From Mobula hypostoma (Eukaryota), in assembly GCF_963921235.1 (NCBI RefSeq), contig NC_086108.1, positions 73,410,001 to 73,474,000 of the forward strand: 64,000 nt of DNA. The letters are read 5' to 3'. Shown here in pieces: positions 17,706 through 62,264 of the stretch. How positions within the stretch are numbered: position 1 is the first letter of the stretch; the number at the start of each line of letters is the position of its first letter. The notes beneath the pieces were generated by a model. It saw nothing but the letters and a program-made list of their open reading frames with translations. It did not search any database and was not told where the DNA came from. Position numbers and translations under genes: made by a program.

Positions 17706-19149
17706 ATGTAGAATATTGCACTGTAAATATAATCTCATGGGGCCAAACATCCTGCAGATAATGAACCATCTGTTCCCATAATACATACACACTCGTGTGG
17801 CTTTATCTGTTCCAGCACTCTCAACATAGATATCCCATTTCAATATGGCAGGGCCCTATACTGTGACAGGGCTTTATATTATACCCTGGGAATGTTCCCT
17901 CTTCCCTGTTCTGAGAACCGCTCTCCCACCCACACCCAAGCAATTTTTGCCTTTCGTGAAACTCCTATCATCCTCATGGTACCTCCAGCCATATCCACAA
18001 ATCAATGACTCCATATAATCTGCCACAACCTCTGAGCACTCCAGATCTTCTTCCATTCAGATCACTAGAATCACTTCTTCACTCCCAACGCAAACCTTTC
18101 CCTACATCCCAGTTTTCCACCAAACATCCCCAATGCAATGTTCCTCTACCCCCAAATATACCACTGGTTTTCCACACTGACCATCCCAATGCCACCTTGT
18201 ATCACTCCCTCACACTTCCTCACACTTCCTCCTTGATCTCCATTCACCACAACAAAATGAATTACAGAGAAAAGGCCCATGCCCATGTTTATACCATCCA
18301 TAAAGCCTTAACCCTTGCATAGGGTAGTGGGTCCAGGAGCTTCCCACAATATGATTATGACTGCCACCCAACATCTCCTCAATATGCCTTTCATAACTTG
18401 AATATTTTCTAGACCATATAGATTCCTGGAAAATGTGGATAATTTTCATTAAAAAGTATCCACGCATTAAATTTTAATATTTTTATATTTCACAATGTCT
18501 ATGTAAGCCTGGAAAAATCCAATGCATTCAAATCCTGGTGGGTATGTAATAACAGTAATGATATGCCAGAATGTCAAGGTTAAAATCAACCTCGTGCTAA
18601 CAGAAGTATGAGCATGATGTTCGGAGTGGTTTAATCTAATATGGCAGGGGGATAGGAACCAGGACAATAGAGCTGAGGACGAGCTGGCAGGTTTACAAGT
18701 AGATGATGTAATATATAATATGAATGTAAGGAAGGCCAAGCCAATGATTGGGTACAACTGCAGACAGAGCAAAGAGTTAAGTTGTAGCGCAGAGGCAAAA
18801 GTCATAAGGGCAGAGAATGGAGAACTGAAGGTGCTGTATCTAAATGTATCTAAAACATTCAGAATAAGGTGCATGAACTCGTAATGCAATTAGAGATTGG
18901 TCAAGATGATGTTTTGGGCATCATTGAGCCATGGCTGAAAGAAGGTCATAGTTGAGAGTTTAACATCACAGGATATTCATTGTATCAAAAGGACAGGCAG
19001 AAAGGCATAGGTGGTGGTGTGGCTCATTTGGTAAGAGATGGAATTACATCTTTAGAGAGAGGTGATATAGGGTCAGAAAATGTCAAATCTTTGCGGGTGG
19101 AGTTAAGAAACTGCAAGGGTAAAAAAACATGATTATGGGAATCATATTC

Positions 19150-24963: not shown

Positions 24964-26717
24964 TGTCACAATGGGGTGCTGGAAACGGACCCAAATGCGA
25001 GACACAGGCACAGGACTTGACTAGAGTAGGGACATGACAGGATTCAGGCAAGGAGCAGGGACAAAAACGCAGAGTTGGGCTAGGGTAAGTGGGACCAGGA
25101 CTAGGAACCATGGACCAGGAGACAAGGCTCGGACTCCGAGCCCAAGACTGGACAAGGACCCAGAACCTGGGTCTTGCCTCGGGCTCGGACCCCAGAAACA
25201 GGCAAGGACATCACATGGCTTCAGGACAGGACGTGGCTGGAGTCTAGGGGTCTGAGCTTGGAGACAAGACAAGGCTCGGACTTCGAGCCCGAGACTGGAC
25301 AAGGACCCAGAACCTGGATCTTTCCTCGGGCTCGGACCCCAGAACCAGGCAAGGACATGACATGGCTTGAGGCTGGGGTCTTGGGTCTTGAGCTTGGCTT
25401 GGGATCCTCGAGGCTTCGGGTCTTGGGTCTTGAGCTTGGCTTGGGATCGTTGAGGCTTGGGGTCGTGGGTCTTGAGCTTGGCTTGGGATCCTTGAGGCTT
25501 GGGGTCTTGGGTCTTGAGCTTGGCTTGGGATTCTTGAGGCTTGGGGTCTTGTGCCTTGAGCTTGGCTAGGGATCCTCAAGGCTTGGGTTCTTGGAGCTTG
25601 GCTTGGGATCCTCGAGGCTTGGGTTCTGGGAGTTTGGCTTGTGATCCTCGAGGCTTGGGTTCTTGGAGCTTGGCTTGGGATCCTCGAGGCTTGGGTTCTT
25701 GGAGCTTGGCTTGGGATCCTCGCAGCTTTGGGTTCTTGGAGCTTGAGCTTGGCTTGTGATCCTTGTGGCTTGGGGTCTTCGTCTTGAAATGCGGAGGCTG
25801 ATAACTTGGAGACTGGAGCTGAGAGACAGACTGGGAACTGAACATCAACGTAGAGCCAGGACTTATCCTTCGACAAGCCAGGACTCATCTTTAACACAAC
25901 ACAAACATGAGACAGGACAGAACATAGACATAGAGCCCAGACTTATCCTACGACAAGCCAGGACTCAACTTCATCTCCACACCAAGGTGGGATAGGTCTC
26001 TCCATCAGGTAACGGCAGAACGGCTGGACTTACCCAACAGAGGCAATGACAAGACAAGACAGGTCCCCCCGCAGGGCAACGGCAAAATGGCCTGGCTTAC
26101 CCCACAGAGGCGAGGACAAGACAAGACCGATCCCCCCGCAGGGCATCGACAAAACAGCTTGGCTTACCCCACAGAGACGAGGACAAAACAAGACAGATCC
26201 CCCTGGAGGGCAACGGTAAATCAGCCTGGCTTACCCCACAGAGGCAAGGACAAGAAGAGACAAACACCAAAGAATGACGGTCAGTTCCATCTCTGCTCCA
26301 GGAAAGCTCCAAGTCTCAGGTCGGCCAGCAACCTCAGCTGGCTACGGAACAGCCAGATCCCTAACTAGCTTGGAGTGGCTGGCAGCCACTCAGCTGGGCT
26401 GGGAAACAGCCAAATCCATACCACAAAGACCACTCCAATGAGTGGCAACAAGGCTCCATGAAGCAGTGGTCCTCCAACCAGGCCTAGAGATCACAGATGG
26501 TTTCACTAGCCTTCCATCAGCAGGTTGCTCCAAGGGGGACTGACAAGACAAACCAACAGCCCACACTCAATCCCAAGGCTACTTATATTGCAAGCCCAAA
26601 GATGAGAATTAGGTGCCTATGATTAACTCAACAAGGGACAGCTGGAAGACCCGGAGTCCTGAGTCCACGGACAAGACCGTGAACCGGAATGCGGACTTCA
26701 TGGACCGGACCATGACA
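24964..26717 (-). mobile_element. Large solo-LTR-like element (probably Gypsy) with internal tandem repeats
   Basis: TGTCA...TGACA termini, 5-bp TSD CTGAT (24959-24963, 26718-26722), no RT or integrase coding; relative at 56673-58038. Confidence 0.75.
25370..25770. repeat. Minisatellite with 42-bp then 36-bp units inside the LTR-like element
   Basis: ggcttggggtcttgggtcttgagcttggcttgggatcctcga and ggcttgggttcttggagcttggcttgggatcctcga arrays. Confidence 0.9.
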
Positions 26718-42599: not shown

Positions 42600-44130
42600 C
42601 TTAACACCTCCCTGTAGACATGCCTAAAGACCACAGTGGGGACAAGAAAACTGACCATGGTACCATGGCACAGGAAGCCACTTAAATGGGGATAGTTAAA
42701 AGAAATGTGTTTGCCATCAGAGAGACAGATTTTGAGGGAGGTGGATGTTTTGAAGTGGGGTAAATATATTTCAGGGGATAGGCGCTGTGCTCTGACATCA
42801 GGAGAAGGGCAATTACCTCGTAATAATTGAGCATTGTGCATTTACAACACAGTGAATTTGATCAGGAAAGTGAATGCATGGCCCAAATGTTGGTGTCAGG
42901 AGAAGTGGCTTTTGGTTTGTGATGCACTGTATTGGGAATGAAGGAGCTGCTCTTTTAGAGTGAACCATACCTGAACCACACTGCGACCAAGCTCTAGCTA
43001 GGTAAATGAAGCTTTAAAGTAAGTAAGGAGGAGGAGGCTGGTAGGGATGATCCTGGTGGAGAGTAACTTAGAATGCTAGGAAGCAAAAAGAAGGAAGCAG
43101 AGCATGAGAATGATTGGGATACGTACCTACAGGTTGTGTCAGGAAGGGACAGAGTTTACAAACAAAAGAGTACATCACCACAAAGTGCCAGGCAAGAAAC
43201 AAACGCAATGACAATCAAGACTAAAATCCAAAATAAAAACACTAAGATGTCTAAAGTTGTTGAAAAGATACATCTCAAACTGCATAAAGCATTTGCTAAC
43301 AGGTAAATGAATAAAAGCTGAAATTGGTGTAAACAGATACAATGTATTTGCTATTGCATAGCTGTGGTGTGGGATGATATCTAAATATCCAATGATATTT
43401 AATATTTAAGAAGGATAAGCAAAAAGGTTAACGAGATGAGGAGCTGTTATTTGTAAATGATGACATCTATAAAATAGTGAGAAAGGGTGTTAGTTTGGGA
43501 AACGGGATGTGGTATCACAAGAGAGACTGTGGAAGCTGGAAACCTGGAGGAACCTAGCTCCAGGATGTGATACCGGTCTGGCTGGAGTCAAAGAGCACCA
43601 GTATGCAGGACACTGGAGGGAACTATCTACGTTACCTCCAAGCAGCAATGTCAGGGATGGCGTCAAAGCAAGAAGATTTGAATTCAGGAGCAAAAAGTCT
43701 TGTTGCAGTTACACAAGGCTTTAGTAAAACACATTTAGAGTACTAGAGTATTGTGCAGTTTTGATTTCCTTATCTTAAGAAGGATAAACTTGCCATAAGG
43801 AGAGTGGAACAAATGTTCACCAGACTGATACTTGGATGATGAGTCTGAACATGAGGAGAGATTACAGAAACTGGCTTTGCAACTAATAGTTTAGAAGAAT
43901 GAGAGGCAATCTTATTTAAACTTATAACATTCTTACTGGGCTGGACGCACTGGATGCGAGAAGAATGTGTCACCTATCCAGAGTGCCTCAAATTGGGGGT
44001 CGCAGTTTCAGGATGCAGCATTGAGGATTGAGACGAGGAGAGATGTCTTCACAAGAGATGGTTTCCTGTAAAATTTGCCAACATAGTGGGCTCTGAAGGC
44101 AAAGGCACTGATTGCATTTAAGAAAGAGAC
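42600..44130 (+). mobile_element. Very old, heavily deleted CR1
   Basis: Residual esterase-like end (~42960-43022), EN-like segment and 3' motifs (gagtattgtgcagtttt..ccttatcttaagaaggata, tttagaagaatgagagg). Confidence 0.6.
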
Positions 44131-47866: not shown

Positions 47867-49609
47867 ATTTCTGATCACAGAACTGATGATTAAAATATAA
47901 ATTAACATCCTCACCCTGGATTGTGGCCTGATAATCTATGAAAAACATTTGTGCAATAGTTTTATTCAAGAACAAAATGGTCAAGTCTATGAAATCTGCA
48001 ATATAGACGAATCATTCCACAGGCCATTCAAGTTTCTACTTCATTCTTGAAGTTAATTTTATTATGGTTATTCTAAATTATCCTATTTCTTTTACTGGAC
48101 TATGTTGAACATCCAATTGATTCTAAACCTTAAATAAAATGGAAAATGCCGGAGACACCACATCTGTAAAAGGAGAAAAGAGAGCTAATGCTTTAAGTCA
48201 AATCTCTTCATCAAAACGGAAATGCTGCCTGATCTGCCGAGTATCTCCACCATTTTCAGTTTTATTTCAGAATTCCAGAACCTGCTGATTTTTGCATTTC
48301 AACTACAACTTCCATTTTCTCAACAACTGTAGAACCTCAATGAGCTAAAGATAACTGAACAGCCGTCAACATCACTGTTATTGTGAGAATATTTTTAAGC
48401 CATGATTCTTGCACCTTCTACTTCCTCCACTCGGGCTTTATAAGACAATTCTAAAATAGAGTTTTTCAATATCCTCAGACAAGGACAAAATCTACACCAA
48501 CTCTACTATGTTATTGCCAAGTCATATTCAGGTCCTGACATCTGCAATGTGACTGATAATTGATACCAGAATTCATTTTCAGATTGTACATGCCATTGCA
48601 ACATGTAACATATAACAATATTGCCATACTTTTATCCTTATAAAGCAAGACAACAATGAGCAGTGGTGCATGAGTTACTGATAAAATATGTAATATTCAC
48701 GTGACACATGATTGAACACAAATCGGTGAGCGCTTGCACTTATTTGATTTGTTTCTTTCTCACTCGTCCTATCAGTTTAATCAGTGGCTCTTTAATATAG
48801 TTGTGTAGCTGCAGACTAAAGCTAAGATTTGTCATGTCGCAATACAATACTTAGAAGCTGAATCCCCAGAGTTCAGATAGAACCACCTGTAATCAGTGGT
48901 TTACCCTATGGAGTACTGTGACTCCATCTGCCTCACTGCGGAGGATGGTAATCATTTTAATTCTCTTCACTATGCAGTATGTTAGCTGGGTAATGACACT
49001 TACTTAAATTACAGTATGATTGACTATGCAAATGGGCCAACTGAACTGCTCATCATTCTCATTATTAAGTGCTGGGACAAAATTAGGAGACACGATAATC
49101 TAAATGTAACCATTTTGAGTCTAATACAAAGTACTAAATATAAGCCCGTTCCATCCCTTAAGATAGCATAGCTATTTGAAAACAATGATTTCAAACCGGA
49201 AAATATCAAAACCCTTCTAAAGATACTTCACCATTTAGAATATTGTGGTGATTTGTAACATACCCTTAACCACCCAATGAAAAACAGGCCAACCCAGGGC
49301 ATCTGGTGGATTTTGCCCATGTATATAGCCAGGGACTTAGGGTAAACAGAAGTAGCTGGAAATTCAGAGTAAAACACACACAAAAAATGCTGGAGTAGTT
49401 CAGCAGCACAGGCAGCATCTATAGAGGGTGTTTCAGGCAGAGACCCTTCAGAACTGTGCATATAGGGAGGCTGATTTTCAGAATGTGCTCACAACTCTCT
49501 ACAAGTTTTTTACTTGTGTATATGACAATCAACTTTTATGTGACTTTGACTTGTACCAACATAGACCACAATCTCTGCCTGCTCATCCTCCATTTTCAAA
49601 ATGTCCAGC

Positions 49610-50030
49610 GCCTGCTCCGAGTCATCCTTCACCCTGACACTAGAGAAGCAGGACTCCATCCTGGAGTCTCACTCACATACACAGAAACGCCTGTCTGTCC
49701 TCTTATGACTACGAAACCTTACGACTCACCTGAACTTTGACCTTCCCTGCAGTACACAATGGGTTATGATGCCACTGGTCTTGATGCTGCCCAACCACAT
49801 TTCCAATGAATAATATCCAAGTGATATACATCTTAAGGAATAGAATAGCTAGAGGAGACTCCTGCACTGCTTGCCAGCCTCTACTGGCAGTTAACCATCT
49901 ACTTGGCAGAATTTTCCATGTGTTCACTTCCTTTCTTTGATACTTTCTGCGTGCTGTATTCTATATGCTCCTCAGTGAGTCTGACTGATCCATGTAGTGT
50001 GAAAGGAACTCCAAATGGACACACTTCCTG
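49610..50030 (-). mobile_element. Old CR1 ORF1-region remnant
   Basis: ggagactcctgcact...ctggcagttaaccatct and ccatcctggagtctc resemble CR1 ORF1 DNA; very degenerate. Confidence 0.4.
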
Positions 50031-50940: not shown

Positions 50941-52103
50941 TAAGACCATAAGACCATAAGACAAAGGAGCAGAAGTAGGCCATTCGGCCCATCGAGTCTG
51001 CTCTGCCATTTTATCATGAGCTGATCCATTCTCCAATTTAGACCCACTCCCCCTCCTTCTCACCATAACCTTTGATGCCCTGGCTACTCAGATACCTATC
51101 AATCTCTGCCTTAAATACACCCAATGACTTGGCCTCCACTGCTGCCCGTGGCAACAAATTCCATAGATTCACCACCCTTTGACTAAAAAATTTCTTCGCA
51201 TTTCTGTTCTGAATGGGCACCCTTCAATCCTTAAGTCATGCCCTGTTGTACTAGACTCCCCCCATCATGGGAAACAAGTTTGCCACATCCACTCTGTCCG
51301 TGCCTTTCAACATTCGAAATATTTCTATGAGGTCTCCCCTCATTCTTCTAAACTCCAAGGAATACAGTCCAAGAGCGGACAAACGTTCCTTATATGTTAA
51401 CCCTCTCATTCCCGGAATCATTCTAGTGAATCTTCTCTGCGCCCTCTCCAATGTCAGCACATCCTTTCTTAAATAAGGAGACCAAAACTGCCCACGGTAC
51501 TCCAAGTGAGGTCTCACCAGCTCCTTATAGAGCCTCAACATCACATCCCTGCTCCTATACTCTATTCCTCTAGATAGAAATAAATACCAACATTGCATTC
51601 GCCTTCTTCACTACTGACTCAACCTGGAGGTTAACTTTAAGGGTACCCTGAACGAGGACTCCCAAGTCCCGTTGCATCTCAGAACTTTGAATCCTTTCCC
51701 CATTTAAATAATAGCCTGCCCGTTGATTTTTTCTGCCAAAGTGCATAACCATACACTTTCCAACATTGTACTTCATTTGCCACTGCTCTGCCCATTCTTC
51801 CAATCTATCCGAGTCTCTCTGCAGTCTCTCCGTTTCCTCAGCACTACCGGCCCCTCCACCTACCTTCGTATCGTCAGCAAACTTAGCCACAAAGCCATCT
51901 ATTCCATAATCCAAATCGTTGATGTACAATGTAAAAAGAAGCGGCCCCAACACAGACCCCTGTGGAACACCACTGGTAACCAGCAGCCAACCAGAATAGG
52001 ATCCCTTTATTCCCACTCTCTGTTTCCTGCCAATCAGCCAACGCTCTATCCACGTATATAACTTTCCCGTAATTCCATGGGCTCTTATCTTGTTAAGTAG
52101 CCT
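50941..52103 (-). mobile_element. 5'-truncated CR1
   Basis: [34 protein letters not shown]; (cttatggt)n tail. Confidence 0.92.
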
Positions 52104-52342
52104 TAAATAAATTGACCTCTTGATACATTTTTTTAATTGTAAATAACTTACATTTAAATTTCACCAGTACCAATCAAAAATGTCCTAAAATGCATTATAA
52201 TCTCAAACTTAGATCCAGCTGAGAGAGTGGTGCAAAAATTCTTGGCATTTCTATTACACTTCGTCATTTTCAGTGTATCATGTTTTAATTTGAACTGAAA
52301 CTTTCATGAAATCAAAATTGCAGAACTTCAATCAACACACCG

Positions 52343-52891
52343 TCTGGCCCTGTAGCTCAGAAGGGTAGGGCAAGGAAGAGGAGGGCAGTTGTGATAGGGG
52401 ACTCGATAGTAAGGGGGTCAGATAGGCGATTCTGTGGACGCAGTCCAGAGACTCGGATGGTAGTTTGCCTCCCTGGTGCCAGGGTCCGGGATATTTCTGA
52501 TCGTGTCCAAGATATCCTGAAGTGGGAGGGTGAAGAGCCAGAGGTCCTGGTACATATAGGTACCAATGACATAGGTAGGAAAAGGGATGAGGTCCTGAAA
52601 GAAGAATATAGGGAGCTAGGAAGGGAGTTGAGAAAAAGGACCGCAAAGGTAGTAATCTCGGGATTACTGCCTGTGCCACGCGACAGTGAGAGTAGGAATG
52701 CGATGAGGTGGAGGATAAATGCGTGGCTGAGGGATTGGAGCAGGGGGCAGGGATTCAAGTTTTTGGATCATTGGGACCTCTATTGGTGCAGGCGTGACCT
52801 GTACAAAAAGGACGGGTTACACTTAAATCCTAGGGGGACCAATATCCTGGCAGGGAGATTAGTGGGGGCTACTGAGGTGACTTTAAACTAG
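52343..52891 (+). CDS. CR1 ORF1 C-terminal SGNH/GDSL esterase-like domain (5'-truncated)
   Basis: VIGDS, LPGA, HIGTND, DGLHLN blocks; frame open from the element's 5' break to TAG 52889-52891. Confidence 0.9.
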   Translation, partial: SGPVAQKGRARKRRAVVIGDSIVRGSDRRFCGRSPETRMVVCLPGARVRDISDRVQDILKWEGEEPEVLVHIGTNDIGRKRDEVLKEEYRELGRELRKRTAKVVISGLLPVPRDSESRNAMRWRINAWLRDWSRGQGFKFLDHWDLYWCRRDLYKKDGLHLNPRGTNILAGRLVGATEVTLN

Positions 52892-52910
52892 AATGGTTGG
52901 GGGGTGGGAA
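52882..52910 (+). promoter_or_regulatory. Putative -1 ribosomal frameshift signal (T_TTA_AAC plus downstream G-rich tract)
   Basis: X_XXY_YYZ heptamer in ORF1 phase just before the stop; the -1 frame runs into ORF2, which has no AUG until codon 202. Confidence 0.6.
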
Positions 52911-55896
52911 TCAAATTAAAGAGTCTAGGTGTGAGGAGGTTAGTTCACAACAGAGGGATGGGGACCAGTGCAGAGAGACAGAGGGGTGTAAAGTGAGTGT
53001 AGAAGCAAAAAGTACAAAGGGGAAAAGTAAAAGTGGCAGGCCGACAAATCCAGGGCAAGCATTAAAAAGGGCTAAGAGAGTTGTAAAAGAGCGCCTGAAG
53101 GCTTTATGTGTCAATGCAAGGAGCATTCGTAATAAGGTGGATGAATTGAAAGTGCAGATTGTTATTAATGATTATGATATAGTTGGGATCACAGAAACAT
53201 GGCTCCAGGATGACCAGGGATGGGAGCTCAACATTCAGGGATATTCAATATTCAGGAGGGATAGACATGAAGGAAGGGGAGGTGGGGTGGCGTTGCTGGT
53301 TAAAAAAGAGATTAACGCAATAGAAAGGAAGGACATAAGCCGGGAAGATGTGGAATCGATATGGGTAGAGTTGCGTAACACTAAGGGGCAGAAGACGCTG
53401 GTGGGAGTTGTGTACAGGCCACCTAACAGTAGTAGTGAAGTCGGAGATGGTATTAAACAGGAAATTAGAAATGTGTGCAATAAAGGAACAGCAGTTATAA
53501 TGGGTGACTTCAATCTACATGTAGATTGGGTGAACCAAATTGGTAAAGGTGCTGAGGAAGAGGATTTCTTGGAATGTATGCGGGATGGTTTTTTGAACCA
53601 ACATGTCGAGGAACCGACTAGAGAGCAGGCTATTCTAGACTGGGTATTGAGCAATGAGGAAGGGTTAATTAGCAATCTTGTCGTGAGAGGCCCCTTGGGT
53701 AAGAGTGACCATAATATGGTGGAATTCTTCATTAAGATGGAGAGTGACATAGTTAATTCAGAAACAAAGGTTCTGAACTTAAAGAGGGGTAACTTTGAAG
53801 GTATGAGTCGTGAATTAGCTAAGATAGACTGGCAAATGACACTTAAAGGATTGACGGTGGATATGCAATGGCAGGCATTTAAAGGTTGCATGGATGAACT
53901 ACAACAATTGTTCATCCCAGTTTGGCAAAAGAATAAATCAAGGAAGGTAGTGCACCCGTGGCTGACAAGAGAAATTAGGGATAGTATCAATTCCAAAGAA
54001 GAAGCATACAAATTAGCCAGAGAAAGTGGCTCACCTGAGGACTGGGAGAAATTCAGAGTTCAGCAGAGGAGGACAAAGGGCTTAATTAGGAAGGGGAAAA
54101 AAGATTATGAGAGAAAACTGGCAGAGAACATAAAAACAGACTGTAAAAGCTTTTATAGATATGTAAAAAGGAAAAGACTGATAAAGACAAATGTAGGTCC
54201 CCTGCAGACAGAAACAGGTGAATTGATTATGGGGAGCAAGGACATGGCAGACCAATTGAATAATTATTTTGGTTCTGTCTTCACTAAGGAGGACATAAAT
54301 AATCTTCCAGAAATAGTAAGGGACAGAGGGTCCAGTGAGATGGAGGAACTGAGTGAAATACATGTTAGTAGGGAAGTGGTGTTAGGTAAATTGAAGGGAT
54401 TGAAGGCAGATAAATCCCCAGGGCCAGATGGTCTGCATCCCAGAGTGCTTAAGGAAGTAGCCCAAGAAATAGTGGATGCATTAGTGATAATTTTTCAAAA
54501 CTCGTTAGATTCTGGACTAGTTCCTGAGGATTGGAGGGTGGCTAATGTAACCCCACTTTTTAAAAAAGGAGTGAGAGAGAAACCGGGGAATTATAGGCCC
54601 GTTAGCCTAACGTCGGTGGTGGGGAAACTGCTGGAGTCAGTTATCAAGGATGTGATAACAGCACATTTGGAAAGCGGTGAAATGATCGGACAAAGTCAGC
54701 ATGGATTTGTGAAAGGAAAATCATGTCTGACGAATCTCATAGAATTTTTTGAGGATGTAACTAGTAGAGTGGATAGGGGAGAACCAGTGGATGTGGTATA
54801 TTTGGATTTTCAAAAGGCTTTTGACAAGGTCCCACACAGGAGATTAGTGTGCAAACTTAAAGCACACGGTATTGGGGGTAAGGTATTGGTGTGGGTGGAG
54901 AATTGGTTAGCAGACAGGAAGCAAAGAGTGGGAATAAACGGGACCTTTTCAGAATGGCAGGCGGTGACTAGTGGGGTACCGCAAGGCTCAGTGCTGGGAC
55001 CCCAGTTGTTTACAATATATATTAATGACTTGGATGAGGGAATTAAATGCAGCATCTCCAAGTTTGCGGATGGCACGAAGCTGGGTGGCAGTGTTAGCAG
55101 TGAGGAGGATGCTAAGAGGATGCAGGGTGACTTGGATAGGTTAGGTGAGTGGGCAAACTCATGGCAGATGCAATTTAATGTGGATAAATGTGAAGTTATC
55201 CACTTTGGTGGCAAAAATAGGAAAACAGATTATTATCTGAATGGTGGCCGATTAGGAAAAGGGGAGGTGCAACGAGACCTGGGTGTCATTATACACCAGT
55301 CATTGAAAGTGGGCATGCAGGTACAGCAGGCGGTGAAAAAGGCGAACGGTATGCTGGCATTTATAGCGAGAGGATTCGAGTACAGGAGCAGGGAGGTACT
55401 ACTGCAGTTGTACAAGGCCTTGGTGAGACCACACCTGGAGTATTGTGTGCAGTTTTGGTCCCCTAATCTGAGGAAAGACATCTTTGCCATAGAGGGAGTA
55501 CAAAGAAGGTTCACCAGATTGATTCCTGGGATGGCAGGTCTTTCATATGAAGAAAGACTGGATGAACTGGGCTTGTACTCGTTGGAATTTAGAAGATTGA
55601 GGGGGGATCTGATTGAAACGTATAAGATCCTAAAGGGATTGGACAGGCTAGATGCGGGAAGATTGTTCCCGATGTTGGGGACGTCCAGAACGAGGGGTCA
55701 CAGTTTGAGGATAGAGGGGAAGCCTCTTAGGACCGAGATTAGGAAAAACTTCTTCACACAGAGAGTGGTGAATCTGTGGAATTCTCTGCCACAGCAAACT
55801 GTTGAGGCCAGTTCATTAGCTATGTTTAAAAGGAAGTTAGATATGGCCCTTGTGGCTACAGGGGTCAGGGGGTATGGAGGGAAGGCTGGGTTCTGA
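52897..55896 (+). CDS. CR1 ORF2: APE endonuclease plus reverse transcriptase (active-site FADD reads FADG)
   Basis: NARS, GITETW, YRPP, MGDFN, ILD, SDH endonuclease motifs; NYRPVSL, QHGF, DFQKAFD, PQGSVLGP RT motifs; no internal stops. Confidence 0.95.
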   Translation: MGGGNQIKESRCEEVSSQQRDGDQCRETEGCKVSVEAKSTKGKSKSGRPTNPGQALKRAKRVVKERLKALCVNARSIRNKVDELKVQIVINDYDIVGITETWLQDDQGWELNIQGYSIFRRDRHEGRGGGVALLVKKEINAIERKDISREDVESIWVELRNTKGQKTLVGVVYRPPNSSSEVGDGIKQEIRNVCNKGTAVIMGDFNLHVDWVNQIGKGAEEEDFLECMRDGFLNQHVEEPTREQAILDWVLSNEEGLISNLVVRGPLGKSDHNMVEFFIKMESDIVNSETKVLNLKRGNFEGMSRELAKIDWQMTLKGLTVDMQWQAFKGCMDELQQLFIPVWQKNKSRKVVHPWLTREIRDSINSKEEAYKLARESGSPEDWEKFRVQQRRTKGLIRKGKKDYERKLAENIKTDCKSFYRYVKRKRLIKTNVGPLQTETGELIMGSKDMADQLNNYFGSVFTKEDINNLPEIVRDRGSSEMEELSEIHVSREVVLGKLKGLKADKSPGPDGLHPRVLKEVAQEIVDALVIIFQNSLDSGLVPEDWRVANVTPLFKKGVREKPGNYRPVSLTSVVGKLLESVIKDVITAHLESGEMIGQSQHGFVKGKSCLTNLIEFFEDVTSRVDRGEPVDVVYLDFQKAFDKVPHRRLVCKLKAHGIGGKVLVWVENWLADRKQRVGINGTFSEWQAVTSGVPQGSVLGPQLFTIYINDLDEGIKCSISKFADGTKLGGSVSSEEDAKRMQGDLDRLGEWANSWQMQFNVDKCEVIHFGGKNRKTDYYLNGGRLGKGEVQRDLGVIIHQSLKVGMQVQQAVKKANGMLAFIARGFEYRSREVLLQLYKALVRPHLEYCVQFWSPNLRKDIFAIEGVQRRFTRLIPGMAGLSYEERLDELGLYSLEFRRLRGDLIETYKILKGLDRLDAGRLFPMLGTSRTRGHSLRIEGKPLRTEIRKNFFTQRVVNLWNSLPQQTVEASSLAMFKRKLDMALVATGVRGYGGKAGF

Positions 55897-56672
55897 GTTG
55901 GATGATCAGCCATGATCATAATAAATGGCGGTGCAGGCTCGAACGGCCGAATGGCCTACTCCTGCACCTATTTTCTATGTTTCTATGTTTCTATGTAAAA
56001 CATAGAGTATAACTTTAAATTTATTGTTTTGCTTTCTTTTTCCTTTCTGTGTACTTTAATGAAAATCTTGGAGAAAACACTTTAGAAATCATTTCTGGAT
56101 GACTCACAATACAACGCAGTGCATATAAAGATGCAGACTGCATTGTAATCCAAATATTTTACTGTGCTTTAAATGGTTAAGTCATAGGTTTTAGGTCAAA
56201 GTGCTTTTAAAAGGCAGCATTGGGAAGGCTCTAAATTAAGAATGATTTTGAAAAGTTATAGCCATAAGCCAGTATAAACAGAATGGACAAAAGAACCTCT
56301 TTCATGATGTACACTTCCACAGGTCATTGGTTCGAACAGCTTAACTTTAGGTAACAGGCAGGAGCACGCAATTGATAATCACCTGGAATATTGTAAAATC
56401 ATGGGATCTTTCTGGGACATTTTTGTTTGTGTGTTCACATTACTCAAAAAATGCCTTCTAGCAGAAGAATGGAAGTAACTAAATTGACCTCTTGGTACAT
56501 TTTTTAAAAGTGTAAATAACTTACATTTAACTTTCACCAGCACCAATCAAAAATGTCCTAAGATGCATTATAAAAGAGAATAAATCTGAATAGGAGGTTG
56601 GGGAGATGGATGAATAGACAATTAAATAAACAAGGATGTTTTGAAAAGCAAGGAAGAATGTCACTAAGATTA

Positions 56673-58038
56673 TGATATAAGGTGGGTGTTGATGGCGGAG
56701 CCAAATGCAAGACACAGACGCTGAAGTGCTAGGAACAGGACTCGGGTTATCGAGATAGCAAGGTGAGTCAGGAAGAAACAATGCTGGACATTGACACAGG
56801 CCCTGGATGAGACTAGGATTCAGGGCCTGGGCTAGGACTTAGACTAGAGTCACGGGACCCGGACGTGGAACTAGGAACAAGGAGCCTGGACTAGGAACAC
56901 AGAACTCCGGAACCAGAACCTGGACAAGGAACTGGAACCTGGGCGTTGGTTGGGACTAGGAACCTGGGTCTTGACTCAGAACTGGAACCCGGGTCTAGGC
57001 AAGGACAGGACGTGGCTACAGGTACTGGACATGGAACTCCTGCACAGGATGAGTCACATGGACAGGACAAGAACACAAAGCCTTCACTTGGAGAGGACAA
57101 GGTTCTAGGACGTGGCTTGGGCTGGACCCCGAATCTAGGCGAGGACAAGACGTGGCTAAAGGACAAGACGAGGTATCCCAGCACAGAACAAGGTACCCCC
57201 AGCTGGGCGAGGAACTCCTGGGCTGGGCTGGGCAAGGCACTGGAACTAGATGAGGACACAAAGCTCAGATTTGGACAGAACTGGAACATGGCACCTGGAC
57301 TTGGTCTTGGAACACAGAGCCTTAGACTTGGACTGGACGCTCAGGGCCTTGAACGAGGTACTCCAGTGCAGGACAAGGCTCTTGGACTAAGTTTGGCTTG
57401 GCTCTTTAACTCAGCTTGGGTATGGAGCCGGGACTCCTCCTTGGAGCAAGGGCCGGGACCCTTTCTAGGACGCAAGGTCGGGATGACTGCCGAGGACGCT
57501 TGCCAAGGTAAACTGCCAAGGGACTCCTGGACTGGATGAGAACGCAAAGCCTTCACTTGGACAGGACTGGAACACGGCTCCTGAAACTTGGAACACAGGA
57601 TTACAGAACACAGAGCCAGGACCCCTCCTTGGGAACAGGACTTAGGGCCATGGCTTTACACAGATTCAAGACCCCTCCGAAGGAACGGGACCTAGGACCA
57701 GGACTCTTCTTTGACACGGACACTAAACATGGGGACACAAAGAGATAGTTCCAAACTCAGCGATAGATAGTTCCTTATCTTGGCGTGGCAAGGCTCCGGT
57801 CTCACTCCGGCGGTTGAACTTGATGAGGATGTAGGCGAGGCTTCAGAAGGAAGGGAAAGGGAACAGTCCAGCAGGGAATCCTTGGTTTGAGAGGTATTTA
57901 TGTGCCAGCCCAAAACAAGAATCAGGTGCCTCAATTAAGGCACACAATGGAACAAGGGAAAACAGGAAAACCTGGAATAGGGAGTCAAAGGACCGGACCG
58001 TGAACCGGAATGCATATTTTACGGACCGGACCATGACA
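56673..58038 (-). mobile_element. Second solo-LTR-like element, related to 24964-26717
   Basis: Shared ends (ccaaatgc.agacacag; ccgtgaaccggaatgc...ggaccggaccatgaca); flanks GATTA/GATAA (4 of 5 match). Confidence 0.7.
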
Positions 58039-58863: not shown

Positions 58864-61520
58864 ATTCATAGATTCATAGAATAGTACAGCATAGTACAGG
58901 CCCGTTGGCCCACAATGTTGTGCCAACCCTCAAACCCTGCCTCCCATATAAGCCCCCACCTTAGATTCCTCCATATACCTGTCTAGTAGTCTCTTAAACT
59001 TCACTAGTGTATCTGCCTCCACCACTGACTCAGGCAGTGCATTCCACACACCAACCACTCTCTGAGTAAAAAACCTTCCTCTAATATCCCCCTTGAACTT
59101 CCCACCCCTTACCTTAAAGCCATGTCCTCTTGTATTGAGCAGTGGTGCCCTGGGGAAGAGGCGCTGGCTGTCCACTCTATCTATTCCTCTTATTATCTTA
59201 CCTCTATCATGTCTCCTCTCATCCTCCTTCTCTCCAAAGAGTAAAGTCGTAGTTCCCTTAATCTCTGATCATAATGCATTCTTTCTAAACCAGGCAGCAT
59301 CCTGGTAAATCTCCTCTGTACCCTTTCCAATGCTTCCACATCCTTCCTATAGTGAGGTGACCAGAACTGGACACAGTACTCCAAGTGTGGCCTAACCAGA
59401 GTTTTATAGAGCTGCATCATTACATCGCGACTCTTAAACTCTATCCCTCGACTTATGAAAGCTAACACCCCATAAGCTTTCTTAACTACCCTATCCACCT
59501 GTGAGGCAAATTTCAGGGATCTGTGGACATGTACCCCAAGATCACTCTGCTCCTCCACACTACCAAGTATCCTGCCATTTACTTTGTACCCTGCCTTGGA
59601 GTTTGTCCTTCCAAAGTGTACCACCTCACACTTCTCCGGGCTGAACTCCATCTGCCACTTCTCAGCCCACTTCTGCATCCTATCAATGTCTCTCTGCAAT
59701 CTTTGACAATCCTCTACACTATCTACAACACCACCAACCTTTGTGTCATCTGCAAACTTGCCAACCCACCCTTCTTCCCCCACATCCAGGTCGTTAATAA
59801 AAATCACGAAAAGTAGAGGTCCCAGAACAGATCCTCGTGGGACACCACTAGTCACAATCCTCCAATCTGAATGTACTCCCTCCACCACCACCCTCTGCCT
59901 TCTGCAGGCCAGCCAATTCTGAATCCACCTGGCTAAACTTCCCTGGACCCCATGCCTTCTAACTTTCTGAATAAGCCTACCGTGTGGAACCTTGTCAAAT
60001 GCCTTACTAAAATCCATATAGATCACATCCACTGCACTACCCACATCTATATGCCTGGTCACCTCCTTAAAGAACTCTATCAGGCTTGCTAGACATGATC
60101 TGCCCTTCACAAAGCCATGCTGACTGTCCCTGATCAGACCATAATTCTCTAAATGCCTATAGATCCTATCTTTAAGAATCTTTTCCAACAGCTTTCCCAC
60201 CACAGACATAAGGCTCACTGGTCTATAATTACCCGGACTATCCCTACTACCTTTTTTGAACAAGGGAACAACATTCGCCTCCCTCCAATCCTCCGGTACC
60301 ATTCCCGTGGACAACGAGGACATAAAGATCCTAGCCAGAGGCTCAGCAATCTCTTCTCTCGCCTCGTGGAGCAGCCTAGGGAATATTCCATCAGGCCCTG
60401 GGGACTTATCTGTCCTAATGTATTTTAACAACTCCAACACCTCCTCTCCCTCAATATCAACATGCTCCAGAACATCAACCTCACTCATATTGTCCTCACC
60501 ATCATCAAGTTCCCTCTCATTGATGAATACCGAAGAGAAGTATTCATTGAGGACCTCGCTCACTTCCACAGCCTCCAGGCACATCTTCCCACCTTTATCT
60601 CTAATCAGTCCTACCTTCACTCCTGTCATCCTTTTTTTCTTCACATAATTGAAGAATGCCTTGGGGTTTTCCTTTACCGTACTCGCCAAGGCATTCTCAT
60701 GCCCCCTTCTTGCTCTTCTCAGCCCCTTCTTAAGCTCTTTTCTTGCTTCCCTATATTCCTCAATAGACCCAGCTGATCCTTGCTTCCTAAACCTCATGTA
60801 TGCTGCCTTCTTCCTCCTGACTAGATTTTCCACCTCACTTGTCACCCATGGTTCCTTCACCCTACCCATTCTTTATCTTCCTCACCGGGACAAATTTATC
60901 CCTAACACCCTGCAAGAGATCTCTAGACATCGACCACATGTCCATAGTACATTTCCCTGCAAAAACATCATCCCAATTCACACCCGCAAGTTCTAGCCTT
61001 ATAGCCTCATAATTTACCTTTCCCCAATTAAAAATTTTCCTGTCCTCTTCGATTCTATCCTTTTCCATGATAATTATAAAGGCCAGGGATCGGTGGTCAC
61101 TGTCCCCCAGATGCTCACCCACTGAGAGATCTGTGACCTGACCCGGTTCATTACCTAGTACTAGGTCTAGTATGGCATTCCCCCTGGTTGGCCTGTCCAC
61201 ATACTGTGACAGGAATCCATCCTGGACACTCTTAGAACATTCTGCCCCATCTAAAACCTTGAAACTAATCAGGTGCCAATCAGTTAAAGTCACCCATGAT
61301 AACAACCCTGTTATTTTTGCACCTTTCCAAAATCTGCCTCCCAATCTGCTCCCCTGTATCTCTGCTGCTACCAGGGGGCCTATAGAATACCCCCAGTAGA
61401 GTAACTGCTCCCTTCCTGTTCCTGACTTCTACCCATATTGACTCAAAAGAGGATCCTGCTACATTACCCACCCTTTCTGTAGCTGTAATAGTATCCCTGA
61501 CCAGTAATGCCACCCCTCCT
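58864..61520 (-). mobile_element. 5'-truncated CR1 (different subfamily), frameshifted
   Basis: 558-aa ORF 59193..60869 with FADD; EN pieces 60862-61513 (YRPP, IMGDFN, SDH); (tatgaatc)n tail; possible TSD CCTGAG. Confidence 0.95.
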
Positions 61521-62264
61521 GAGGCCGATTAAACTTTCATATTTACACAATGAGTGAGGCTTTTTGTATTTCATTTTAGTTACTTGTCCTTTGTGGATAT
61601 ACAAGTTGAATCTAGGGCAATCCTGCTTGCTCAAGGGCCCACTGTAGGAAGCATTGACATTCCTGTCCAATGTAATGCCTTGGGCAACCAGCAGTATTTA
61701 GTTGGTAGGGTACAGTAAAGCCCTGGATTTGCCTTTATTTTTTAATATATCGAAGCCAGCTGACCTCGGCTATTATGTTTCATTTGTTTCTGACTCTTTT
61801 TAAGAAAAGAAATAAAGAAAAACTGTGTTTGAAAAATCTAAAGTTCCTTAATGTTATGACAAACGATTATAGCCACAGAATGTCTTTCAGTGCAATGCAG
61901 GAACAGAAATAACCCTGAAAAGCCCAAACCATGTTGCAGCCTTGACTGAAATTAATTATTTAACTTCCTCTGGTTTAAGAGATAAACGTTGTGACCTCAG
62001 TTGAACCACCAGTAATGATCTTTTCCTAAATCCTTTATAATTGATGCAGTGAAAAGAAAAGCAATAAAGGAATTGTGGAATTACTTCCCAACCCTAAACA
62101 GATAAGTAGAAAATAATTGTTTAGCTGTGGCCATTAAAACAACATTCAATATAGTAGAGAGGTTCTCTGGAAGAAGTGAAAGATACTCGCTGCATAGTAG
62201 AGAAGAGACATATTGCCAGGAAATGCTAAGACCTAAAGAACATCAAACTGAAGAAGCACAGGAT

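Follow-up and report, generated by a model that had tools for sequence, protein, structure and literature searches.

How does a retrotransposon with two reading frames obtain the product of its second frame when that frame offers no AUG ahead of its first catalytic domain? The question is raised by a 64,000-nucleotide (nt) stretch of the Mobula hypostoma genome (assembly GCF_963921235.1, contig NC_086108.1, positions 73,410,001 to 73,474,000, forward strand; this whole stretch is called the window, and positions are counted from its first letter), in which a young, 5'-truncated long interspersed nuclear element (LINE) of the CR1 type lies at 52336-55996 on the + strand. Its first open reading frame (ORF1) ends in an esterase and its second (ORF2) encodes an endonuclease and a reverse transcriptase (RT), and the first in-frame AUG of ORF2, at 53500, falls inside the endonuclease (codon 202 when counting begins with the TTG at 52897 and codon 209 when it begins at the stop), just as an earlier note on this DNA had stated. 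That note proposed that a programmed -1 ribosomal frameshift joins the two frames. Comparison of many related junctions makes it probable that ORF2 would indeed be produced in this way, as an esterase-endonuclease-RT fusion.

Layout of the CR1 junction

The junction reads GTG ACT TTA AAC TAG, with the heptamer T_TTA_AAC (52882-52888) standing in the ORF1 phase as X_XXY_YYZ. Past it the -1 frame continues as CTA GAA TGG TTG GGG and stays open until 55896, giving 1006 amino acids from stop to stop, and reading of the frames thus bears out both the phase and the continuation into ORF2 that had been reported. The ORF2 frame carries a TGA 6 nt upstream of the heptamer, so that any shift is confined to the last ORF1 codons, and the whole signal is some 25 nt long. 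The parts of the element, all on the + strand, are as follows.

52336-52891, +: C-terminal SGNH esterase part of ORF1, ending ...EVTLN* (Pfam Lipase_GDSL_2, E 4e-17); the 99.1% match to the full-length copy L008 begins here
52873-52875, +: an ORF2-frame TGA lying 6 nt upstream of the heptamer, present in 29/30 young copies
52882-52888, +: slippery heptamer T_TTA_AAC in ORF1 phase, exact in 30/30, 79/100 and 15/20 copies of three samples
52889-52891, +: ORF1 stop TAG directly after the heptamer (TAA in other lineages)
52893-52919, +: the AUG nearest the stop, in a frame other than that of ORF2, with the 8-codon mini-ORF that it starts
52899-52904, +: G-run starting 10 nt after the heptamer, a candidate unstructured stimulator to judge by the conservation of its offset
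52888-53091, +: linker of 203 nt in this copy, in the -1 frame, leading up to the endonuclease
53152-53712, +: apurinic-type endonuclease domain of ORF2 (Pfam PF03372, Exo_endo_phos, amino acids 93-279)
54577-55224, +: reverse transcriptase domain of ORF2 (Pfam PF00078, amino acids 568-783)
55897-55996, +: 3' untranslated region (UTR), ending in an 8-nt tandem repeat, with no poly(A)

What kind of element is this? CR1 elements end in short tandem repeats rather than poly(A) and are frequently truncated at the 5' end, and the same three features are found here. ORF2 combines an apurinic endonuclease with an RT, both recognised by Pfam, and ORF1 combines the SGNH esterase with N-terminal zinc-finger-like cysteines, arranged in L008 as two CxxC pairs; C28 is invariant in the protein alignment. 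Among named ORF1 homologues a devil ray protein ranks first (96%), ahead of those of skates, rays, sharks, a chimaera and frogs. By eye, the junctions also resemble published CR1 consensuses. The 40 best genomic matches to the flagged copy are 98-100% identical to it. The copy itself has no ORF1 start of its own because the 5' end of ORF1 is lost (it begins at about 52336); in several sister copies the whole of ORF1 is present and ORF2 is open through the end of the stretch retrieved. Full-length copies also carry a long unit repeated about three times in the 5' UTR ahead of ORF1 (L008:180-560), and at one locus (L022-L024, G000:C45:45.25 Mb) three matches at a spacing of 3484 bp form a tandem array of a truncated CR1 copy.

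Conservation of the heptamer

One heptamer alone is not beyond chance, because the + strand of the window holds 203 generic slippery heptamers, and TTTAAAC occurs there exactly four times. What matters is therefore its behaviour among related copies, for which the counts rest on samples of 30, 30, 100 and 20 copies. All 30 young copies retrieved keep the junction with the exact heptamer. For the 100-copy sample the anchor was an ORF1 motif ending about 45 nt upstream, which avoids selecting on the heptamer, and the first 100 listed of its 19,502 matches were taken: 79 of these junctions have the exact heptamer, 12 have one mismatch and 9 have more. Against a background of 13 exact occurrences in 225,700 flanking nt, the heptamer is conserved beyond chance, and the conservation of heptamer and -1 phase across CR1 junctions that the earlier note had named as a check is found. 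A further sample, located through a distant protein whose match stops before the C-terminus, has the exact heptamer at an in-frame stop in 15 of 20 copies.

A conserved motif inside a coding sequence could simply reflect a conserved protein, and the informative positions are those that the protein leaves free. The 74 copies of the 100-copy sample without an indel in the junction stretch fall into 22 clusters with a mean identity of 71% (the other 26 copies were excluded). In these the codon before the leucine encodes V, G, S, A, C, T or D, yet its third base is T in 22/22 clusters, while TTA and AAC are each kept in 18/22, the exceptions being clusters of one or two copies. In ORF1, TTA makes up 6/29 leucine codons and AAC 3/8 asparagine codons. 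Downstream of the exact heptamer the stop is TAG in 46 of the 79 copies, TAA in 24 and TGA in none, with 9 decayed; by cluster, TAA is found in 11 and TAG in 8.

The same pattern extends well beyond the ray. A metagenome scan returned 48 loci, ten of which have ORF1 aligned to its end and a stop directly after Leu-Asn (LN). Nine of the ten read T_TTA_AAC and one reads G_TTA_AAC, a tolerated slippery form according to a frameshifting review (PMC5009743); in all eight with an endonuclease in range, this domain lies in the -1 frame at a distance of 80-257 nt. Nine of these loci were stacked with the 22 ray clusters to give 31 lineages, the tenth being omitted as it ends at a contig edge. Distant relatives and ray clusters share 45% nucleotide identity over the preceding 23 codons, and across the 31 lineages the heptamer columns are conserved at 0.90-1.0, with other third positions at 0.35-0.90. 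The first T of the heptamer is kept in 30/31 lineages although the amino acid of that codon varies: among the distant relatives T precedes the leucine in 8/9, the ninth being the G_TTA_AAC element, and leucine is TTA in 9/9. The conservation thus exceeds what the protein needs, as expected of a frameshift site. In that G_TTA_AAC element (L096:680-700) ORF2 lies in the -1 frame and runs without a stop for at least 500 codons, and the G-run stands at 7 rather than 10 nt. A G three bases before the heptamer (52879 in the window, and equivalent columns) is kept in 28/31 lineages and may exert an upstream context effect.

Among the remaining metagenome loci, three are frame-broken copies with the motif nearby and many end too early. 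In a published consensus library (PMC13343379), 17/20 motif hits lie at ORF1 ends, a count from supplement cells of at most 400 letters, positives only, read by eye; its species codes, as far as these cells go, read as alligator, crocodile, bowfin, halosaur, bullfrog, coelacanth, chimaera, sharks and rays. At the more distant esterase loci L114, L126, L127, L129, L130 and L138, ORF1 ends without a heptamer in phase. In L126 (700-1350) and L127 (1270-1712) an esterase is followed by an endonuclease with no slippery site, and these relatives must reach ORF2 by another route. Scans of IMG/VR, plasmids and GTDB gave no usable junction. One CR1 ORF1 of 59% identity (P0022), from a 4-kb contig recorded as Pseudomonas aeruginosa, is likely vertebrate contamination.

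The protein ends tell a similar story. LN is nearly invariant at the end of ORF1 in the protein alignment. From 150 cluster representatives of esterase ORF1, 103 tails are readable; 52 end in LN, at five tail lengths (25-39), and 10 end in GN. Since LN is terminal at all these lengths, it is tied to the stop and not to the fold. In a pooled set of 186 distinct tails the residue before LN is E, K, Q, M or W, whose codons cannot end in T, in just 1/114, and the residue before GN is Q or K in 14/16. The latter pattern would be expected of a swap from U_UUA_AAC to G_GGA_AAC, which these protein tails suggest for the GN-ending group; DNA for this group was not found in the scans. The GN enders, mostly QGN, are P0251, P0253, P0259, P0268, P0270, P0273, P0282, P0300, P0302, P0332, P0341-P0345, P0348 and P0349. 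Three further proteins (P0320, P0327, P0350) carry GF close to their C-terminus, and in about nine esterase ORF1s KN takes the GN position and a short tail follows.

Beyond the heptamer, a long open -1 frame starts at the heptamer itself. The linker is 230 nt in most of the family and 27 nt shorter, in frame, in the flagged sub-family (common to 30/30 top matches); among lineages its length varies from 80 to 302 nt, and the -1 frame is kept. In all five abundant ray lineages that frame has 0 stops in the linker, the other frames having 3-9 each, and in four of the five no AUG precedes the endonuclease. The junction is a real, deeply conserved recoding-type signal.

Two further sites in the window had been put forward as one-mismatch versions in older CR1 lineages, and only the first stands.

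18630-18639, +: junction belonging to an older, second CR1 lineage, decayed and with one mismatch in this copy (junction profile E 1e-5)
43013-43022, +: possible very old junction relic, not established, with faint matches

The mismatch at 18630 represents decay, because 21/30 copies of that lineage carry a perfect heptamer. The site at 43013 is only faintly CR1: it is essentially single-copy (2 candidates), its endonuclease matches have E values of 0.0035 and 0.052, its junction-profile E is 3, and it gave no ORF1 match. The window also holds further CR1 fragments, namely an ORF1 piece at 49540-49713 (-), an RT piece at 51050-52157 (-) close to the flagged copy, and a decayed ORF2 at 58942-61522 (-) with no junction detected. 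Arrays of 42-bp and 67-bp tandem repeats with similar repetitive open frames, at 25369-26262 and 56760-57540, probably belong to another repeat family.

Frameshifting and other possible routes to ORF2

How would the signal operate? For most ribosomes translation would end at UAG, with release of the zinc-finger/esterase protein of ORF1. The remaining few would slip on U_UUA_AAC, with tRNA-Leu moving from UUA to UUU and tRNA-Asn from AAC to AAA, would read CUA next and would pass through the linker into the endonuclease and RT, giving a predicted transframe junction of ...EVTLN followed by LEWLGGG. Such a process would fix a low ratio of ORF2 to ORF1 and, in the manner of Gag-Pol, would keep the enzyme attached to particles of ORF1. 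Candidate natural fusions were rejected: at the junction of the stingray proteins P0121 and P0035 stands F-K-L, which single copies carrying an indel further upstream would be expected to show, and the long catfish homologues are gene models with the RT before the esterase. Contigs of four runs guessed to be RNA attest to the presence of the element only.

The earlier note had also placed a G-rich stimulator 6 nt after the heptamer. A G-rich tract does start at 52895, as it said, but the conserved G-run starts 10 nt after the heptamer, in 59/79 ray copies and 7/9 distant relatives. Its columns are conserved at 0.84-0.97 over the 31 lineages, and its first G falls on the wobble position of a codon that varies. 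Neither a conserved hairpin nor a conserved G-quadruplex accompanies it: secondary-structure folding found no conserved stem-loop at the 5-9 nt where classical sites have a stem-loop or pseudoknot, the region is C-poor, and an Rfam search gave nothing near threshold. A conserved G-quadruplex was discarded as stimulator, a marginal two-tier form occurring in 5/24 sequences, none with z below -2; the review sections available to us state that natural G-quadruplex stimulators are not known (PMC5009743). Pairing of the G-run with the 3' UTR was discarded too, being top-ranked in the flagged copy (-20.0 vs -19.5) with no preference for the own partner in 12 elements. [quoted passage not shown] It is conceivable, and we propose it tentatively, that the CR1 ribosome pauses with the stop codon in its A site while an unstructured G-run near the mRNA entry channel, probably bound by protein, takes the place of a fold.

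Several observations weigh against frameshifting. The 100 nt that follow in the flagged copy fold no better than shuffles (z 0.09), 24 sequences folded over 100 nt share no structure (2/24 below z -2), and pairing with the 3' UTR is as good with others' partners as with the element's own (own -16.7 vs others -16.9 kcal/mol). Two other ray codons likewise often have T in third position (19/22 and 18/22), E, K, Q, M and W are also infrequent at tail positions -6 and -7, and 51 of the 103 readable esterase tails do not end in LN. The nine distant relatives were picked from 48 loci for an ORF1 aligning to its last residue, a choice that favours LN ends. Two dogfish consensuses of the published library carry the same ten letters in the 5' UTR. 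Finally, some lineages do have an early AUG: in the 18630 lineage the linker contains AUGs at codons 30 and 38, and in 4/9 distant relatives the slip is followed by an in-frame AUG at a distance of 2-3 codons.

These last AUGs, lying within three codons, are the main opening for termination and reinitiation, whereby ribosomes, as has been reported for the mammalian LINE L1, would stop at the end of ORF1, resume after a few bases at a codon that may or may not be AUG and make free ORF2, with the conserved letters serving as a reinitiation signal. SART1 reportedly has such an arrangement, with an ORF2-frame start codon beside the ORF1 stop. In CR1 the overlap of the two frames is minimal, a fixed spacing from stop to start would likewise keep the -1 frame, and some other relatives have GTG or TTG at codon 3. 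L1 tolerates changes of its ORF2 AUG to other sense codons (PMC1965478). A conserved ORF2-frame start codon beside the ORF1 stop is, however, absent from the ray clusters and present in just those 4/9 relatives: codon 3 is ATG, GTG, TTG, TGG, TGC, TCG, ACA, AGT or AGG depending on the lineage, no start-like codon is common to the lineages, and in the flagged family the nearest AUG is out of frame. An X_XXY_YYZ motif whose wobble base is constrained is not what reinitiation predicts, and neither are the G_TTA_AAC variant and the exchange of LN for GN. It is accordingly judged unlikely.

All explanations other than frameshifting and reinitiation are improbable even when taken together. In one of them the ORF1 protein would need a C-terminal Leu-Asn, the codons would be inherited and ORF2 would start at a non-AUG codon in the linker; LN is indeed nearly invariant in the alignment and the linker contains near-cognate codons. 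This leaves unexplained the exclusive use of TTA and AAC, the T of the preceding codon and the G-run at 10 nt, all at 45% identity, while LN is terminal at tail lengths of 25-39 and the linker is free of stops from the junction on, which makes the idea very improbable. Equally slight is the chance that the letters are a splice, protein-binding or slippage site, with ORF2 made from a processed transcript: the 5' UTR copies in dogfish would suit it, but the mix of TAA and TAG stops means that no AG acceptor is conserved, the tract is purine-rich, none of 15 joints examined (of 30, in the contigs of the four runs guessed to be RNA) is GT..AG or recurs across runs, and the T and A runs are just 3 long.

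A -1 frameshift thus remains the account that the comparisons favour. Phase, -1 frame, nucleotide conservation, a stop-free linker and the lack of an AUG in four of five lineages all agree with the proposed fusion of ORF1 to ORF2; the stimulator spacing, the lack of an AUG in every lineage and the site at 43013 are the details that do not stand as first given.

Precedents and implications

Is there a precedent for such a strategy? The grammar of the heptamer is that of retroviral gag-pol and coronavirus ORF1a/1b, in which a structural protein is fused to a polymerase, and the coronavirus parallel drawn by the earlier note is correct, U_UUA_AAC being the site of infectious bronchitis virus and one of four listed as most shifty on mammalian ribosomes in the review (PMC5009743). 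At those sites a stem-loop or pseudoknot usually follows at 5-9 nt, whereas the CR1 junction has no conserved one, and CR1 is a LINE and not a virus. Closer in spacing is the arterivirus PRRSV, whose C-rich motif 11 nt 3' of the slip site is bound by nsp1beta and PCBP and involves no fold (PMC5009743); the CR1 run is G-rich, and the likeness is one of spacing only (10-11 nt).

For LINEs, -1 frameshifting has a non-vertebrate precedent. The Dictyostelium elements TRE5-A and TRE3-A, of the apurinic-endonuclease type and without long terminal repeats (non-LTR), have two ORFs, and ORF2 is stated in PMC5911963 to need a -1 frameshift, in passages that make no link to vertebrate CR1; these elements differ from CR1 in host and in ORF1. 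Mammalian L1 and Candida Zorro3 face the same problem of access to ORF2 on a bicistronic RNA, but their ORFs do not overlap and are separated by a spacer, and reinitiation or internal initiation has been proposed (PMC1965478). The vertebrate esterase-ORF1 CR1 elements (subgroup 7, ORF1 type IVB) have been described as having a zinc-finger/leucine-zipper and SGNH esterase ORF1 and an apurinic endonuclease and RT ORF2 (PMC4120745, PMC13343379), in passages that do not address translation of CR1 ORF2. The word 'frameshift' is absent from the main text of PMC13343379, PMC4120745 and PMC3905857, occurs once in that of PMC4255032 in the sense of decay, and the sole non-LTR passage found in PMC5009743 concerns HeT-A and TART. 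Full-text literature searches, whose coverage did not extend to the founding CR1 papers and Repbase reports, found no description of CR1 frameshifting, and none of the papers that they returned states by what route CR1 ORF2 is translated.

A broader and more speculative extension, which we hold to be less likely than not, is that esterase CR1s throughout the jawed vertebrates, together with sister groups outside these, might make RT solely as an ORF1 fusion, through an ancient, fold-free -1 frameshift composed of heptamer, stop and a G-run 10 nt on that is read by a protein or by the ribosome, the sister groups having swapped the heptamer to G_GGA_AAC and perhaps to G_GGU_UUU.

In most vertebrate species the dominant retrotransposon belongs to the CR1 group (PMC13343379). 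If frameshifting is the route to their ORF2, the annotation of CR1 ORF2 would change and the esterase ORF1 would gain a direct role in carrying the enzyme. The junction that has to be kept in CR1 retrotransposition assays would become known, and the family would provide a eukaryotic -1 site that has no obvious folded stimulator and exists in thousands of naturally occurring variants.

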